A program made the translations under genes and the position numbers. Below the pieces are notes generated by a model. It made no database searches. It was not told where the DNA came from and saw nothing but the letters and a program-made list of their open reading frames with translations. From a virus, in IMG/VR virus record IMGVR_UViG_3300028030_000005, positions 1 to 64,000 of that record: DNA of 64,000 bases, one strand, 5' to 3'. The stretch's first letter is position 1. Every line of letters begins with the position of its first letter. Below are positions 4,284 through 11,709 of this stretch, one piece after another.

Positions 4284-4536
4284 AATCTAATTCTGTGTCA
4301 TTTTGTTGTTTAACATCCCACAATTCCTCGTGTAATGCAATTGATTCTAATATTTCTTGATGGTTCCACTTTTCGTGAGCTCTTTCTGTTATCTTAATCT
4401 TACCCGGAGTTCGTCCACGCAATGTTATGCTGTCCATTATGCGAATACATTGATAATCTGGATATCTTTGCTGTTCGTCGAGAAATTCCTGTGAATCTGC
4501 ACAATGTATATATAAAAACGGCTTCTGTTTTGTCAT
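4270..4536 (-). CDS. Hypothetical protein (88 aa)
   Basis: ORF track; coupled to its neighbours. Confidence 0.55.
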   Translation of the reverse strand: MTKQKPFLYIHCADSQEFLDEQQRYPDYQCIRIMDSITLRGRTPGKIKITERAHEKWNHQEILESIALHEELWDVKQQNDTELDYGID

Positions 4537-6422
4537 ATTATTGTTGATTTTGCATTTTTCTTTTCGACAGTGATAATATACGGATAATTTTTATTAAAAC
4601 TTCCGTGCGTTACGGCCAGTATAGTTTGGTTGAGTTTGTTGAGCAAGTCCATCATTTTAACGACACCAAGTTCGTCAGACGACTCAATGATTTCGTCTAA
4701 AAACAACAAATCTAATCCAATTGATGCGTTGCGATTGATAAGTTGTTGTAGGGCTAATATGGTAGCAACCTTAATCCTTGTTCGCTCTCCTGACGAATAT
4801 CGTGCATACATTCCTTCAACTAATCCATTTCTCAACACTTTGACACTGATATTCTCGCGAATCTTGCCAGTTTTAGTGATTTTATATCCATCAAATTGAA
4901 TTGTTATATTAGAACCAAATTGTTGCAGGTATTCATTGACGTATGCTTGAATCACTGCTATCGCCTTGTTGGATAGGTGTGTTTTGAATCGCGTAACTAT
5001 TGTATTCCATTGATTGGCATCAAATAGTTTCTGTTCAACAACTTGCTTTTGTGTTTGCAATTCTCCTAACTCCTTTGTTAGATTGTCGATGTTCTGTTGA
5101 TATTCAGCCGTTTTGTCTTGAATTACTTGTGTTTGTAAATTGACCAGCGAAGTTTCGGTTTGTCTAATCTGGTCGGTTAGTGATTTAATTGCATTGTCAG
5201 CACGAGTAATTTGCTGTTCAATTGTATTGTATTGACTACGTAATCGCATTCGTTTTTCGTGATTGCTTTGCTGTAATTGCCGTTGTTTACGAATTTGTTG
5301 TTCGATATTATCTATCTCAGAATGTACACGTCCTATATCAGCATCAATCTCTGCAATAACAGAAATGAATTCAGATTGACTGTCTTTCGCAGCTATCAAA
5401 TCAAAACTATCGTCCGTAACACTGAATTCGTGACCACATTTTGGACAAGTTGTCGTTCCTTGTAACGCCACTTCAATTTCGGCTTGTAATTTTTGAATTT
5501 CAGAGCGCTCGATTTTCCATTGATTTATTTGAGCTTCGAGTTTCTCGATTTCTGATTGCAATTTCGATTGCTGAGAATTATCAACTTTTGGTAGTGATAT
5601 TAACTCTTTTTCCAGTTGTTTTAATTGAGATTGAAAATTGACAATGTCGTTTTTGAATGCACTGATTTGCTTGTTGTAACTGGCGATATTTGTTTTTAGT
5701 ACTAATTTTCGACGCTCAACTTCTTGTTTTATCTCGTTCAAATCAAAATTATTGATTTCATCTTTATAAACATCAATTTTGCTTTGTGTAGATGTCATTT
5801 GATGCTCAATAGAGTGCAAATCAGCATTGTTTTTATCAATTCTTTGTTGAATCAAATCATATGCAGGGTCAACCAAATCAGCTTGACTAAATCGACTTAT
5901 TACCTGTTTTTTCTCTGTATCGCTCATCGCGAGAAACGACTTGAACTTTTCCTTACTAACAAGATAATAGTTTAGCAAGTCTGACCGACTAATGCCTATA
6001 TGATTCAATATCCAGGCATTTCCTTGCTTAACATCAATTTTACCAGCAGAATTCACTTGTAATGTTGGTGGTATCTTTTTATTCAATTCAATATATAATT
6101 CTGCTGATTTAGTGTTTGACCATACAACTCGTCTTATGTATAGTATATCGTTTTTTGATTTCAGCGTCAATTCAATATCCATTGATTTAGCGTCGTCTTG
6201 TACCAAATCTTTGACACTGACTCCGCGCAAAGGACTTCCAGTCAATGCAATTGCAATTGCTTCAAGTAGTGCTGATTTACCGCTCCCATTACTTTGCTGA
6301 CCATCATCAGTTAGATTACGACCTTGCACCATTACGGCGTGTTTGTTGTCAAATTGATAACTTTGGTCGTCAAATGACATCAATCTTTGTATGCGTAGGT
6401 TCGTAGGTTTATACATTTTCAA
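4533..6422 (-). CDS. sbcC: SbcC/Rad50 (T4 gp46-like) ATPase
   Basis: Walker A NGSGKS, coiled coils with a CPKC zinc hook, YSSGE signature, LLFLDE Walker B, VTH. Confidence 0.92.
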
Positions 6423-7368
6423 GTATTTTTTGAGTTAGTTCGTCGGATAATTCCGGGTTATCTTGCAATAATTGGATGACTGACACTCTTCCTTGTCCGA
6501 GTTTAGTATCTTTATAACTAAACCAACTTCCTGCTTTTTCTATAATATCGAGCTCAACCGCCAAATCGAGTATCTCTTTTTCTCGAATAAATCCTTTGCC
6601 GTACTCGATATATCCATCGACAACTTGATAAGGTCGTCCGGTTTTGTTTTTTACAATTTTGATTTTGACATCATTGCCAACAACAGTTTTCCCATCTTTA
6701 ATCTGTGTTGACCTACGAACATCTAATCTAACAGATGCTGCAAATTTTAACGCATTTCCTCCTGAAGTCGTTTCGGGATTGCCAAACATTACGCCAATTT
6801 TCATACGAATCTGATTAATAAATATAATTGTGGTTCCTGATTTACTCGCAGCACTCGGTAATTTTCGCATCGCCTGACTCATCAAACGCGCTTGTTTACC
6901 GACAGAAGCGTCGCCCATCTCTCCTTCCAACTCTGATTTTGGCACTAATGCACTCACACTATCAATAACAATGATATCAACTTCTTTTGACCGTGCCAAC
7001 ATATCAGCTATTTCCAATGCTTGTTCTCCATAATCTGGCTGAGAAACGATAAGTGCGTCAGTGTCGATACCGAGTGCTTCGGCATATTCTAAGTCTAATG
7101 CGTGTTCTGCATCAATAAAAGCGGCATTTCCTCCATTTCTTTGTATCTCAGCAATTGAGTGAAGTGCCAATGTTGTTTTGCCTGATGACTCAGGTCCATA
7201 GATTTCGATGATTCGTCCACGCGGATATCCTCCTTTCAATGTCATATCGAGTTTCAAACTTCCTGTACTTATCCGCTCAATCTCCATTGCATCTAAGTCC
7301 TTAACACGATTGATTGTGTTTTTACCATAGGTTTTATTGATTTTTTCTAAAATTGTAGATAATGCCAT
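6409..7368 (-). CDS. recA: RecA recombinase
   Basis: [29 protein letters not shown] and [15 protein letters not shown]. Confidence 0.98.
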
Positions 7369-8396
7369 TATAATACTTTTTTTAATAATTTTTCTCCAGT
7401 CTCTTTATCAATGTCAGGATTGTTGTCAGCAAATTCCTTCCATTCATCTAAAATCTTATTTCGGTCAAATCCGTCAAAATTTTGAGCTGATTGGTAGTCG
7501 ACGTGCACTTCAACATCTGTTTGTTCTATCTTAACATCAATTCCAACAGATTCGAATATGTGCTTATCTATCGATTTCACTTTTTCAGCTGAACCTTGAA
7601 ATTTGAACCGAATATTATCTTTTGAATTGGCATATTGAGCTGCAAGTGTTTGAACTTGCTTTATGTCAGTTTTATCCAGGTCAATTTTGACAGTTTTGTA
7701 GCGTTGAAAGTCCGGGATAAATAATTCGTGTGAACCATCATTGTAAAAAATAGTAAATCCTTTCAGGTCGTCCTCTCCGTAATTTCGTTGACGGATTGAA
7801 CCTACGTAGAATATATTGGTTCCTACTTGTTGTTTGTCGTGATAATGTCCAACGAGTACTTTAAAAAACGCATTAAAGTCTGTCGGGTCCAACACATCAT
7901 CTACAACAGAACCGTCGTTATTACGGACACCATCAACTGCTACGTGAGTGATTAAAACGTTGTCAGGATTATCCAACACACAAAGATTGAGATATTTAGA
8001 ATATGTCGTTTTTTCATCGAAAAACGGAACGAGATGAATGTTCCAATTATTGATATCTACTCGCGAATATCTATCAACTAATGTAAATCCAGGAACGTCT
8101 TTAAAGACATCGAGATAACTACTTTCGCTCTGATAATCGAGTTTGTCGTGATTGCCTGGAATTGCAATTATTCGTACTCCTGCGTCATTGGCATATTTTA
8201 ACACTGCTTTAAATGCGAGTAGTACTTCGAGATACTGAGATTTTCTACTGTTAAAGATATCGCCTGCAATAAATATAGTGCCAATGCCATCAACAACTGC
8301 TTTATCAACTGCTTGTATAACGACACTTTGTGTTTGTTCTAAATCTTGAATGTCGTAGTGTAGGTCTGTAATGACCATAAAAATTGAGTCCCTCAT
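7368..8396 (-). CDS. sbcD: SbcD/Mre11 (T4 gp47-like) metallophosphoesterase nuclease
   Basis: TDLH, AGDIF, PGNHD and GHYH motifs; adjacent to recA and sbcC. Confidence 0.9.
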
Positions 8397-8413
8397 CTTT
8401 TGTATTTTTATAG

Positions 8414-8492
8414 GTCTCTCGACGAGATTCGAACTCGCATCTCTCAGTCACTTGCGTGGCTAAGCGCTTTACCTCATTAAGCTACGAGAGAC
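8414..8492 (-). tRNA. tRNA-like RNA (His-like G-1:C73 acceptor) with a non-canonical anticodon arm
   Basis: Minus strand folds as GTCTCTCG TA GCTT-AATGAGGTA-AAGC G CTTAG-CCACGCAAGTGA-CTGAG AGAT GCGAG-TTCGAAT-CTCGT CGAGAGAC. Intact D and T arms; 12-nt anticodon region; no encoded CCA. Confidence 0.75.
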
Positions 8493-8507
8493 TACCGGGT
8501 TATGGGA

Positions 8508-9803
8508 TTACTTTTTCACTTTATCGCGTAGGTTTCTTAAACGACTTCCGGCTGTAGTCGCTTTTTTACCTATATCAGAGCTGCCCGGAACGTTATTAGC
8601 AGCTTCCGATTCTGCAGCTTGTTTTTCTGCTTCCAACATTTCTAATTCCTCACTGATAAACTGTCGAACCATATCGACTGTGTATGAAGGTAGAATTCTG
8701 ATTGAAAGCTGTTTTTCTTTAATGTACGCTTTCAATTGTCGCATATTCATCTGGTCGATTGAAGGCTCGACATCAAACGGAAGGTCGTTGTCGTCATCAA
8801 CAGGAGTGTCGTCTCTGTAATTATCTTGGTCGTCGTGATTGGTGGTAGTGTCGTTATCAGACTCATCGTCGTCTCCATAATACTCAGCAATTTGTTCAGC
8901 GATGTCTAAAAATTCATCGTGAGTAAATACTTCGTATCCTGACGAGAATCCAAATTGACGAAGCACTTCAGCTGACTCCTCATCGAATCGTTTTAGTCCT
9001 TCCATCGCCAACATAAAGTCACGATACTTATATACTCCAACATACATTGATTCTAATGAAGGTTGTTCTGACAACCATTCAAATTGTTCATCTGTTAGGG
9101 GAGTCGGTCCTTTCAAGTCAATCGCTACCTGATACTTTTTGCCCGGGTCTTTTTCGGATTTATTGTACGTTACAAGTACTTTACGTCCGTCATCGATTCC
9201 GGTGAAGGGGTCAACTGCGATTACTCCGTCATCGTCGTCCTGTCCGGCTGCAATTTCATTCAGTTTGTTTTTCACACTGGTAGGTAATTCAACTCGTCCA
9301 TTGGTTCCGTTCAGATTTCCATAAATGATGTAACGTGTTTGCGCTTTGATTCCGGGATGAAATCGTCCGTTTTCTTTCCAACCTTCGATTGGTCGTAAGT
9401 ACTTTTTGCGAGTATCATCATCTTGAATTTCATCGTACGCTTTTTTGTACACAAAGTTGATATACTCATCAATGATGTCTTTTTCAGTATTCCCGTGAAT
9501 ACGGCTATTGAAAATCGGTTTTTTCCCAATTTTTTGATTGCCGTTGTCATCTTTAACGGGATTGCCGTCTTTGTCAGTATAAGCCACTTTCAAAAAGTGA
9601 ACTGACCGTGGATATGCCCACATTCGTGTTCCAGGATGTTTTGGAAAGATTCTGAGTTTGTTTTTTGACCCATCTTTCTTTAACTCTAACACTTTTGCTC
9701 TGTCAGAATTTCCGGTTCTAATCTTAGATTCAACTTCCTCTTGTTGTTCTTTTAATACATCGACCTTAGTTGCTTTAAATTGGTCACGTCTGAACTTTGC
9801 CAT
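8508..9803 (-). CDS. Single-stranded DNA-binding protein, T4 gp32-like
   Basis: KNKLRIFP, DPFTGIDDGRKVLVTYNK...KYQV pattern; acidic DDDNDLPF tail; position in the recombination module. Confidence 0.7.
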   Translation of the reverse strand: MAKFRRDQFKATKVDVLKEQQEEVESKIRTGNSDRAKVLELKKDGSKNKLRIFPKHPGTRMWAYPRSVHFLKVAYTDKDGNPVKDDNGNQKIGKKPIFNSRIHGNTEKDIIDEYINFVYKKAYDEIQDDDTRKKYLRPIEGWKENGRFHPGIKAQTRYIIYGNLNGTNGRVELPTSVKNKLNEIAAGQDDDDGVIAVDPFTGIDDGRKVLVTYNKSEKDPGKKYQVAIDLKGPTPLTDEQFEWLSEQPSLESMYVGVYKYRDFMLAMEGLKRFDEESAEVLRQFGFSSGYEVFTHDEFLDIAEQIAEYYGDDDESDNDTTTNHDDQDNYRDDTPVDDDNDLPFDVEPSIDQMNMRQLKAYIKEKQLSIRILPSYTVDMVRQFISEELEMLEAEKQAAESEAANNVPGSSDIGKKATTAGSRLRNLRDKVKK

Positions 9804-9822
9804 AATTTAATTGTTTTTATGA

Positions 9823-10383
9823 TTATTGTTTAATAAGTTTTTCTTTAACACGGATTAAAATTCCGTTAAATTTTCCTTCAACAAGCTCTTTTTCGAGCTC
9901 CTCAGGATGAAAGGATAAATTGTCTGATATTTTATTGAGTTTTTGTTCCTTTGATTTAACAGCCCAATAAATTGCATCCATCACATCTGCTTCTTTTTTC
10001 AATCTTAACAACTTACGATAGTGTAGCTGTACTTGTCGATTTAATGTGATTTCTTCCTCTACTTCAGGATTTGATTTCGCTTTTGAAACCATTTCTCCTT
10101 TTGAATTTGGCACTAACTTAAATTTTTTACGAGCCTTTCGAGCAACTTCAGCTTTAAATACCTCGTAATCGAGTTTGAATTCAGCGTATGCGTTCTCTGC
10201 TTCCGCTTTCCATAACCCCACTCTATTCATAAGAGCGGGGATGGTAATGATTTCAGCGTGTAAATTCGTCCAATCGATAGATGTGAGCTGGTCAATATCA
10301 ATCTCGTCGTCAAAATCCTCAAAAAACAATGTGATGATATGGTCTTTAAACGAGATTTGAATTTTTTGCTTATTCTGCATCAT
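9823..10383 (-). CDS. UvsY-like recombination mediator
   Basis: Helical protein with IDxxNLxxE...AVKSKEQKL pattern; lies next to the SSB and RecA genes. Confidence 0.5.
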   Translation of the reverse strand: MMQNKQKIQISFKDHIITLFFEDFDDEIDIDQLTSIDWTNLHAEIITIPALMNRVGLWKAEAENAYAEFKLDYEVFKAEVARKARKKFKLVPNSKGEMVSKAKSNPEVEEEITLNRQVQLHYRKLLRLKKEADVMDAIYWAVKSKEQKLNKISDNLSFHPEELEKELVEGKFNGILIRVKEKLIKQ

Positions 10384-11239
10384 AACTCGCTTTGGCTTTG
10401 TTTATCAAAGTGATGCAAAAACTACGATGAATATCAAGTCCGTGCAGCTGTTTCAGTTTTTTCATCACGTCTCCGGATGTAAATGCTTGTCCATCGTCCA
10501 TAAACTTGTGCACGATTGCAATTACTTTTTGAGATTTACTTTGCGGATTTACCGGTTTTCTGCCAGAACTTGTTGATTTTTTAGCCGGTTTTTTAGCTGC
10601 TTTTTTGACAAGTTTTTTGTCTTTTTCGTCACTTTCTTTCTTGAAGTGATTTAGTGCTTCGCCAAGATTTTTGAATCCGTAGTCTGCTGCAAACTCTTTG
10701 TTGACGTGCTTGTAAATCTCTTTTTTATCTTTGAGATATCCATCCTCATCGGTTGAAACATAACCAAATCGTTGCATCACTTCGCGATGAATGCGTTGAT
10801 AAACGTTTCGAGCTGCTTTTTCATTTTTCAGTTTTTTGAACTGTTTTGGCTCTGATGGTTCCGGCATTTTTTCAGAAAATCCTGCGTGATTGGTTTTTGT
10901 GTACTTTGTGAGAAAGTCATCAACTAATTCAGGTTTTTGATTTCCATCTTTGTCGGTTAATTCAACGTACTCATCAACCAAATCGGTCTCAGGAACCAAT
11001 CTAACTTTATATTCAATGCCTTCAGCATCTTTATAAATCAGATTTTCATTAATACCTTTATTTTCGTCGATTGATTGTTGTTTCTCGGCGTGAGATTTCA
11101 ATATCAAATCAATCAACTGTTGTTTGTTTAACTGCGATACTCCTTTCGTGATGTTAAAACCTTTGAATAGGATAGTGCGTAGCGCAGCTTCATCTTTCTT
11201 TTGCAAGAATTCTTGCGTGTAGTTTACTAATAGGTCCAT
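10370..11239 (-). CDS. Hypothetical basic nucleic-acid-binding protein
   Basis: Rho-N-like N-terminus (VSQLNKQQLIDLIL), KKAAKKPAKK segment, HTH-like C-terminus. Confidence 0.5.
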   Translation of the reverse strand: MDLLVNYTQEFLQKKDEAALRTILFKGFNITKGVSQLNKQQLIDLILKSHAEKQQSIDENKGINENLIYKDAEGIEYKVRLVPETDLVDEYVELTDKDGNQKPELVDDFLTKYTKTNHAGFSEKMPEPSEPKQFKKLKNEKAARNVYQRIHREVMQRFGYVSTDEDGYLKDKKEIYKHVNKEFAADYGFKNLGEALNHFKKESDEKDKKLVKKAAKKPAKKSTSSGRKPVNPQSKSQKVIAIVHKFMDDGQAFTSGDVMKKLKQLHGLDIHRSFCITLINKAKASYDAE

Positions 11240-11251
11240 AATAGTGGGTTT

Positions 11252-11644
11252 TTATAATTCTTTTAATTTATACCAATATGGCAATACTTTTTCATTATAG
11301 TACTGCTCTAACTCGTCATAATCCTCGTCACACAACATTCCATCCTCAAAATAATACTCTGGAATCAAGTTATCTATACAAGCTAACGCTGTTAATGTTG
11401 AGTTGCTTGATTCTTTGTACGATATGTCTGGAGTTTGGCTGTATATCCAATCTTTGATGTCTTCATAGTTTTCGTCTTTTTTATAATTGTCGGACGTTTG
11501 TTTTCTCCACTCATCAAGAGTGATTTCTCCTCGATAAAATTTTTCAATGATTTGCAAATCGATTACTGTTCTATCGATTACCGCTTTTAATTCTTGTTTG
11601 AGTTGATTTCTTAACTCTTTTTTGTCTTGAACTGAAGTTGTCAT
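11252..11644 (-). CDS. Hypothetical protein (130 aa)
   Basis: ORF directly downstream of promoter repeat copy 2. Confidence 0.65.
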   Translation of the reverse strand: MTTSVQDKKELRNQLKQELKAVIDRTVIDLQIIEKFYRGEITLDEWRKQTSDNYKKDENYEDIKDWIYSQTPDISYKESSNSTLTALACIDNLIPEYYFEDGMLCDEDYDELEQYYNEKVLPYWYKLKEL

Positions 11645-11662
11645 AACTTTGGTTTTTTATTT

Positions 11663-11709
11663 GATTTCTACACTATAAAGATACCCTATAGTTATCTTTT
11701 ATGCAACAG
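11663..11709 (-). promoter_or_regulatory. 47-bp promoter/operator repeat, copy 2
   Basis: gatttctacactataaagataccctatagttatcttttatgcaacag. Confidence 0.8.

Follow-up and report, generated by a model that had tools for sequence, protein, structure and literature searches.

A tRNA-shaped, putatively non-decoding RNA gene ahead of sbcD in an uncultivated phage and in its divergent relatives

Background

The usual explanations for tRNA genes in phages are codon supply and the replacement of tRNAs that host defences have cleaved. At the locus described here, a selected tRNA body that seems to be without decoding ability holds a fixed slot in a recombination operon of very divergent phages. It lies in the window, by which we mean the whole stretch of 64,000 nt analysed, part of the 97.6-kb (~98 kb) IMG/VR virus record, judged 94% complete, of an uncultivated phage that occurs at hydrothermal-vent sites. 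A preliminary description, made from the sequence of the window, had noticed a tRNA-shaped RNA whose anticodon loop is replaced by a GNRA-capped hairpin, and had offered three roles for it: a decoy against anticodon nucleases, a sponge for enzymes such as tRNA-guanine transglycosylase (TGT), or a processing signal for RNase P and RNase Z. No description of the sbcD-slot element family was found in the literature; papers on AcrIIIA1 and on jumbo phages speak of tRNA-like RNAs in other senses only, and a 2023 catalogue of candidate structured RNAs from IMG/VR mentions tRNA-like candidates only generically.

Results

Anatomy of the element

The element is encoded on the minus strand (Table 1), its RNA reading 5' to 3' from window position 8492 to 8413, with G-1 at 8492, C73 at 8414 and C74 at 8413. 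From G-1 it runs through UCUCUCG, U8 A9, the D arm, G26, the anticodon arm, a variable loop of 4 nt (AGAU) and the T arm to CGAGAGA, C73 and C74. The acceptor helix has exactly 8 bp, all of them Watson-Crick, and the A at -2 and C74 are unpairable. The anticodon stem, which contains one U.G pair, encloses 12 nt (C, CAC, GCAA, GUG, A), in which CAC pairs with GUG and GCAA forms the cap. The tertiary-core features U8, A14, G18 G19, A15:U48, G53-C61 and the UUCGAAU loop are all kept.

Table 1. Features of the element and its surroundings in the window
Feature	Position	Strand	Evidence or remark
tRNA-shaped RNA gene, putatively non-decoding	8413-8492	minus	Rfam tRNA; cloverleaf MFE fold; ARAGORN; our own model R1, 64.1 bits
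Acceptor 5' strand GUCUCUCG, including the extra G-1	8485-8492	minus	perfect pairing with 8414-8421
Acceptor 3' strand CGAGAGAC, last base C73	8414-8421	minus	C73 paired to G-1
D arm GCUU / AAUGAGGUA / AAGC	8466-8482	minus	with A14 and G18 G19
Anticodon arm: 5-bp stem CUUAG/CUGAG, C.A mismatch, 3-bp CAC/GUG, GCAA tetraloop	8443-8464	minus	
GCAA tetraloop	8452-8455	minus	
GUG	8449-8451	minus	
T arm GCGAG / UUCGAAU / CUCGU	8422-8438	minus	
Upstream gene, 431 aa, gp32-like SSB by structural lead only	8508-9803	minus	precedes sbcD in related loci
Spacer, 15 nt, upstream stop codon to G-1	8493-8507	minus	
Spacer, 16 nt, A/U-rich, C74 to sbcD ATG	8397-8412	minus	
sbcD-like nuclease gene, directly downstream	7368-8396	minus	Metallophos; PHROG 100 SbcD-like
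recA	6409-7368	minus	Pfam RecA, 5.8e-119
sbcC-like gene	4533-6422	minus	PHROG 77 SbcC-like, 1.5e-70

The minimum free energy (MFE) fold of the element (-27 kcal/mol, z = -2.3) is a cloverleaf in which the 3 additional bp and the tetraloop are present, and the Rfam tRNA model (RF00005), whose curated cut-off is 29 bits, scores it at 48.1 bits (E = 3e-7 over the whole window), treating the anticodon region as an 11-nt insert. The anatomy given in the preliminary description was thus found feature by feature in the sequence of the minus strand, in agreement with both the MFE fold and RF00005. An undetermined or pseudogene call had been expected from ARAGORN, which instead returned a forced 'tRNA-Ala(cgc)'.

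A 7-nt anticodon loop, a U33 and a free triplet are all absent from the element. The sole U among the 12 enclosed nucleotides is the middle base of the paired GUG, so that no 5-base deletion yields a loop with U33, and to judge by its sequence the RNA cannot present an anticodon or read codons. It carries one hallmark of tRNA-His, the G-1:C73 pair closing an 8-bp acceptor (GUCUCUCG/CGAGAGAC), and lacks another, a GUG at positions 34-36 of an open loop, its GUG being paired with CAC. It also differs from tmRNA and from Y RNAs: pair 3:70 is U:A rather than the G3:U70 of tmRNA and there is no message domain, and with regard to Y RNA and YrlA, the element ends at its acceptor and the phage genome gave no TROVE match.

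Comparison of strains

Contigs from DNA sequencing runs, the only kind of run listed as containing the sequence, were compared with the window over 8250-8650. Those of run X2, from another study, cover 8335-8493 and 8464-8637 and show zero differences within 8413-8492, while in their flanks sbcD differs at 7-13 positions per 115 nt and the upstream gene at 7-11 per 144 nt (about 5-11%), and both short spacers are changed as well (a T inserted after 8404 and A>G at 8494). At a divergence of ~6%, about 5 changes would be expected in the 80 nt of the element; since X2 has none, the element is more constrained than its neighbours. It is also no assembly error, a flaw in the loop that had been named earlier as a possible refutation, given that the X2 contigs are identical to the window across the whole element. 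Run X4, from a third study, has one change in the element, A72 to G72, by which U1-A72 becomes U1.G72 and the pair is kept; a second X4 contig has three more differences in 8440-8493, whose exact sites are unplaced.

Genomic context

The element is packed between genes of the same orientation (Table 1). Of the SSB and sbcD genes between which it was first described, the sbcD-like gene matches Metallophos and PHROG 100, and the SSB label of the other is only a structural lead to T4 gp32. The upstream 431-aa protein had no match in Pfam and no sequence match in the PDB, and its gene was found ahead of sbcD in more than 100 related loci by tblastn. An ESM Atlas search gave a structural lead to clusters of T4 gp32-type SSBs, with a TM score of 0.83 measured on the hit, so that we regard the label SSB as plausible but unproven.

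A sigma-70-type motif scan found no promoter or terminator beside the element, and the Bacteroidota -7 motif TAnnTTTG was not found on its strand in a scan of 7300-11700. The element and its neighbours are most simply read as one putative transcript. Elsewhere the genome encodes tRNA-Ile(GAU) and tRNA-Met(CAU), both ordinary, as well as a tmRNA near 72 kb. Searches of the phage genome for Thg1, a CCA-adding enzyme, RtcB, peptidyl-tRNA hydrolase (Pth) and Ro/TROVE were all negative, as was a search of the 94%-complete record for a tyrosine integrase. The tmRNA is of the standard kind (Rfam 80.2 bits; L001:864-1573, about 71.9-72.6 kb of the record) and lies between tRNA-Ile(GAU) and tRNA-Met(CAU).

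Elements in the sbcD slot of relatives

Relatives were fetched through SbcD (80 IMG/VR loci, 80 metagenome loci and six GenBank phages) and scanned with ARAGORN, our own helix scan, Rfam and a purpose-built covariance model, R1, constructed from acceptor, D and T pairs only. Six of them carry an element in the sbcD slot, namely five tRNA look-alikes and one ordinary tRNA-Met (Table 2).

Table 2. Elements in the sbcD slot of six relatives
Locus	SbcD identity to window	Anticodon region or arms present	Pair -1:73	Remark
L011	51%	9 nt, UUUUUAUAA	G:C	ARAGORN 'tRNA-Stop' (tta)
L013	42-43%	36-nt insert	A:U	
L004 (IMGVR_UViG_3300028029_000001)	41%	4-nt loop GAAU	G:C	permuted tmRNA 5 nt on, then terminator
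L122	37%	4-nt loop UUGA	C:G	
L099	43%	8-bp acceptor and T arm only; D and anticodon arms missing	G:C (outermost pair)	
L127	41%	ordinary tRNA-Met (CAU)	U:A	

Common to all seven elements, that of the window included, are an 8-bp helix with a Watson-Crick N-1:N73 pair, a 5-bp T stem, a UUCGANU loop and then C, while the anticodon regions of the six look-alikes (again with the window) are unrelated to each other or, in L099, missing. The next ATG follows within 16-31 nt in 6 of the 7 elements, L004 having its permuted tmRNA in between, and the 5' gaps of the relatives' elements measure 6-35 nt with the exception of L122, in which the nearest long upstream ORF ends 259 nt away. A possible further relative, L128, has a normal-looking tRNA(UCU) with a G-1:C73 end 20 nt before another gene. 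In other tRNA-like genes checked (the tRNA-Ile of G000, those of L173 and L136, and two in Chryseobacterium phage MA9V-3), N-1 and A73 are unpaired.

Six full cloverleaves (window, L011, L013, L004, L122 and L128) were aligned with their arms cut by coordinates. Paired bases occupy 130 of 132 stem cells (120 Watson-Crick and 10 G.U), and at 20 of 22 positions in the stems both sides have changed. Anticodon stems have 5 bp throughout, with unrelated sequences. These counts uphold the earlier view that the RNA is non-decoding for reasons other than random decay. On the other hand, the GNRA hairpin with its paired GUG, which had been presented as the defining trait, is not conserved: the homologues have GAAU, UUGA, UUUUUAUAA or a 36-nt insert, and L099 lacks the anticodon arm altogether. 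On present sequences, both the GNRA cap and the paired His anticodon are private to this phage and its strains, which argues against roles that need recognition of the anticodon region.

In the SbcD tree the window and L011 are sisters, as are L013 and L004, and both pairs fall in one supported clade, which also includes members without an element (L012, L093, L016, L100 and L017), suggesting that the element is old but dispensable. A blastn search with a 301-nt region found no match among 50,697 GenBank phage records. An exact-pattern scan for the acceptor type (GTCTCNCG ... CGNGAGAC plus T loop) recovered from IMG/VR only the phage of L011 and a near-identical record, and the same pattern was absent from 185,579 prokaryote species genomes, so that no host tRNA ancestor can be named.

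Discussion

A putative processing module

We tentatively favour, with a rough probability of 0.45, the reading that the element serves as a handle for processing by RNase P and RNase Z and at the same time releases a small non-decoding RNA. It would be a tRNA-shaped module within a polycistronic replication and recombination transcript, in which host RNase P would cut on the 5' side, where the 8-bp G-1:C73 end would probably remain, as it does in tRNA-His, and RNase Z or another 3' tRNA-end enzyme would cut behind C73. Such cleavage would split the SSB-like message from the sbcD-recA-sbcC message, the latter gaining a short A/U-rich leader of ~16 nt, and an RNA of ~80 nt would be released, putatively non-decoding because its anticodon loop is sealed into the hairpin C-CAC-GCAA-GUG-A. 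We infer the transcription, the cleavages and the role of the released RNA from a fold, a conservation and a packing of genes that are observed.

The acceptor-T helix with its elbow is the part of a tRNA that is read by RNase P, RNase Z and the CCA-adding enzyme. Processing is suggested in the first place because only this acceptor-T core (8-bp acceptor, 5-bp T stem, UUCGANU loop and C74) is invariant, which amounts to a minimal RNase P/Z substrate, and because L099 retains the minihelix only. The tight packing of the element between co-oriented genes (15 nt and 16 nt), with no promoter or terminator motifs, points the same way, as does the presence of an element in the same slot in L011, L013, L004, L122, L099 and L127. 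Moreover, an ordinary tRNA-Met can fill the slot (L127), the element of L004 abuts a permuted tmRNA, itself an RNA needing end processing, and no Thg1, CCA-adding enzyme, RtcB, Pth or Ro partner is encoded. The absence of any change in 80 nt against ~6% in the flanks, together with compensatory changes that keep the helices, also speaks for this reading. Among the three roles put forward in the preliminary description, the processing signal seems to be the best fit to the co-oriented packing, the lack of promoter and terminator motifs and the invariance of the acceptor-T part alone.

Several observations speak against a processing handle. A complete D arm and tertiary core, kept by most members, are unneeded for a pure cutting signal, and the constant N-1:N73 pairing is left unexplained by a handle alone. 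The same is true of the sealed or non-canonical anticodon loop of every look-alike, the tRNA-Met of L127 being the sole sign that an ordinary tRNA fits the slot. Close relatives (L012, L093, L016 and L100) have no element at this junction, hence it is dispensable. A sealed loop with a paired discriminator would keep the RNA from most synthetases and from the ribosome, which fits a harmless by-product and a dedicated trans-acting mimic equally well.

Known RNAs of similar shape

Bacterial tRNA-His shares with the element an 8-bp acceptor with a genome-encoded G-1:C73, normal D and T arms, a 4-nt variable loop and an Rfam tRNA score, but the element lacks the 7-nt loop and U33, its GUG is paired, and its homologues have A:U, C:G or U:A instead. 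At the vertebrate mascRNA and MEN-beta tRNA-like elements, cleavage by RNase P and RNase Z generates transcript ends. The t-elements of plant mitochondria are of the same type: tRNA-shaped modules within longer transcripts, without a working anticodon, at which these two enzymes cleave and so create mRNA or ncRNA ends (PMC1920247). Conservation in both centres on the acceptor-T part, as in L099; however, they belong to organelles and eukaryotic nuclei, whereas the element sits in a phage operon, is mostly a full cloverleaf with an 8-bp acceptor, and has a cleavage that is putative.

Among phages, the species 1 and 2 stable RNAs of T4 (RNA C and RNA D) and the stable RNAs of T5 are small, have tRNA-like ends and play no decoding role; to our knowledge they have no known function. 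They are found in tRNA gene clusters, whereas the element stands alone between protein genes. The 3' tRNA-like structures of plant RNA viruses are viral mimics too, non-decoding, with an N-1:N73 pair and accepted by HisRS (PMC9976931), but they form genome 3' ends with pseudoknots, while the element has an ordinary cloverleaf and is encoded internally in the genome of a DNA phage. YrlA and other bacterial Y RNAs (PMC4201824), like the tRNA-like domain of tmRNA, are non-decoding copies of the acceptor, T and D part. YrlA, however, ends on the anticodon side and works with Ro, and no TROVE gene occurs here, while tmRNA carries G3:U70 and a message part, and the genuine tmRNA of this phage lies elsewhere (~72 kb). 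Phage tRNA-like stable RNAs and tRNA-shaped processing elements are known kinds; the present element stands out by its 8-bp acceptor of tRNA-His type, its fixed position ahead of sbcD and an anticodon arm that is freely replaceable.

Should the element indeed be a processing handle, tRNA shapes would serve as punctuation in the operons of phages with Bacteroidota-type hosts, much as they do in organelles. This would bear on the annotation of such genes (ARAGORN calls tRNA-Ala here and tRNA-Stop in a relative) and on leader formation in hosts that do not use Shine-Dalgarno sites. Whether the released RNA acts or not, nature provides in this family examples of a tRNA scaffold with interchangeable inserts.

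Alternative readings

While processing remains the reading we favour, the released RNA might itself be a trans-acting tRNA mimic, either charged by HisRS through its G-1:C73 pair and 5' phosphate or bound by proteins that recognise the tRNA body, a possibility that we hold to be less likely. Its role might be to titrate a host factor or an effector of tRNA-directed defence, or else to carry histidine non-ribosomally, the sealed loop barring it from decoding. The complete L-shape core is kept, G-1:C73 is found in the window, L011, L004 and L128, and the anticodon hairpin is unchanged in an independent strain. In addition, HisRS charges mini- and microhelices bearing G-1:C73, without any anticodon, and viral tRNA-like structures with an N-1:N73 pair, such as those of plant viruses, are HisRS substrates (identity review, PMC9976931). 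Against such a mimic, no anticodon-arm sequence or loop type is conserved and hence no conserved partner surface lies there, L099 consists of acceptor and T arms only, no partner gene travels along, and several close relatives are without the element.

Neither is His identity family-wide. The reading as tRNA-His in the preliminary description agrees with G-1:C73 here, in L011 and in L004 and with the outermost G:C pair of L099, and disagrees with A:U in L013, C:G in L122 and U:A in L127. Because of these versions, the sequences show a family that apparently conserves the -1:73 pairing and not the identity of the pair, while a His identity for this phage and the other G-1:C73 members is possible. 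A trans-acting RNA would amount to a new kind of small phage effector and, if charged by HisRS, would parallel the tRNA-like structures by which plant viruses accept histidine.

A more specific form of this proposal, which we consider doubtful, takes the 8-bp acceptor with paired discriminator and the sealed arm as joint adaptations of a trans-acting RNA. RNase P would release it with a tRNA-His-type end, and HisRS would charge it in members with G-1:C73, after which the RNA would either occupy a tRNA-binding protein of the host, such as HisRS or an immune effector directed at tRNA, or donate histidine off the ribosome, its loop keeping it out of translation.

That the element is a dying tRNA pseudogene, drifting neutrally after loss of its anticodon loop, seems improbable to us. 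Its patchy presence among relatives, the freely varying anticodon regions and the loss of D and anticodon arms in L099 would all suit decay, but 130 of 132 stem cells remain paired, with compensatory changes at 20 of 22 positions, across SbcD proteins only 41-51% identical. Furthermore, there is zero change in 80 nt against ~6% in the flanks, the sole placed X4 change keeps its pair, and anticodon stems stay 5 bp long despite unrelated sequences.

In favour of the decoy for anticodon nucleases (PrrC, RloC or PARIS type) and of the TGT sponge, both proposed earlier, phages do counter tRNA-cleaving defences and the element does contain a GUG triplet. These roles are now very improbable: the GUG is base-paired, the 12 nt offer no U33-G34-U35 loop such as TGT would need, the homologues all lack GUG and share no conserved loop, and an enzyme that reads the anticodon loop would thus find no target or conserved mimic.

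Only slight credence can be given to a decoding tRNA after all, whether of an expanded-loop or frameshift type or with the loop insert removed as a mini-intron; the anticodons assigned by ARAGORN (Ala cgc here and 'Stop tta' in L011) and the normal CUUCUAA loop of the possible relative L128 are in its favour, but the 4-nt loops of L004 and L122 are too small for an anticodon and no RNA ligase (RtcB) is encoded. As for a mini-intron, no removal of 5 nt from the 12 gives a loop with both U33 and a purine at 37. Phage att sites often overlap tRNA genes, but a remnant or target of site-specific integration (an attP overlapping a host tRNA gene) is very improbable here, where the whole cloverleaf and not the 3' part alone is present and where no tRNA of this acceptor type occurs in 185,579 prokaryote species genomes. 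The attP reading was also rejected on the search for a tyrosine integrase, none being found in the 94%-complete record.

Further tRNA-shaped genes in related phages

Unusual tRNA-shaped genes were also seen near the slot or elsewhere in related phages. A circularly permuted tmRNA of the two-piece type (L004:2598-2939; Rfam RF04321, 60.6 bits) directly follows the look-alike of L004, with the predicted tag AKVIQMNPFQAVATAA and, next to it and before sbcD, a hairpin and T-run terminator. The same phage has a second odd tRNA at ~41.8 kb (L173:1500-1575, minus strand), with a 7-bp acceptor, A73 and an 8-nt anticodon loop, UAAGUAGU, without U33. The phage of L011 carries a tmRNA (71 bits) beside a tRNA-Gln. 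The tRNA of L128 (L128:317-392) combines a canonical CUUCUAA loop (UCU, Arg) with a G-1:C73 8-bp acceptor and is without A20; judged by the identity rules of E. coli, it would resemble a HisRS substrate more than an ArgRS substrate.

In Chryseobacterium phage MA9V-3 (PV245944.1), sbcD is preceded by a non-coding stretch of ~900 nt (L006:1570-2480) with several tRNA-shaped modules. One of these, at 1647-1735, is unannotated and scores 57.7 bits with the Rfam tRNA model, with a 23-nt insert in its anticodon loop; the annotated 'tRNA-Gln' measures 98 nt and has a G3:U70 pair, A73, a variable arm of 9 bp and a loop of 9 nt; and a further T-arm motif lies near 2303-2335. A 100-nt tRNA look-alike with a 7-bp acceptor and A73 lies 0.7 kb before sbcD in L136 (L136:669-770), its anticodon arm being a hairpin of ~12 pairs with an internal loop. 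In L013, the 36-nt insert of the anticodon loop (L013:2299-2334) holds a second T-arm-like hairpin, UCGG-UUCGAUU-CCGA.
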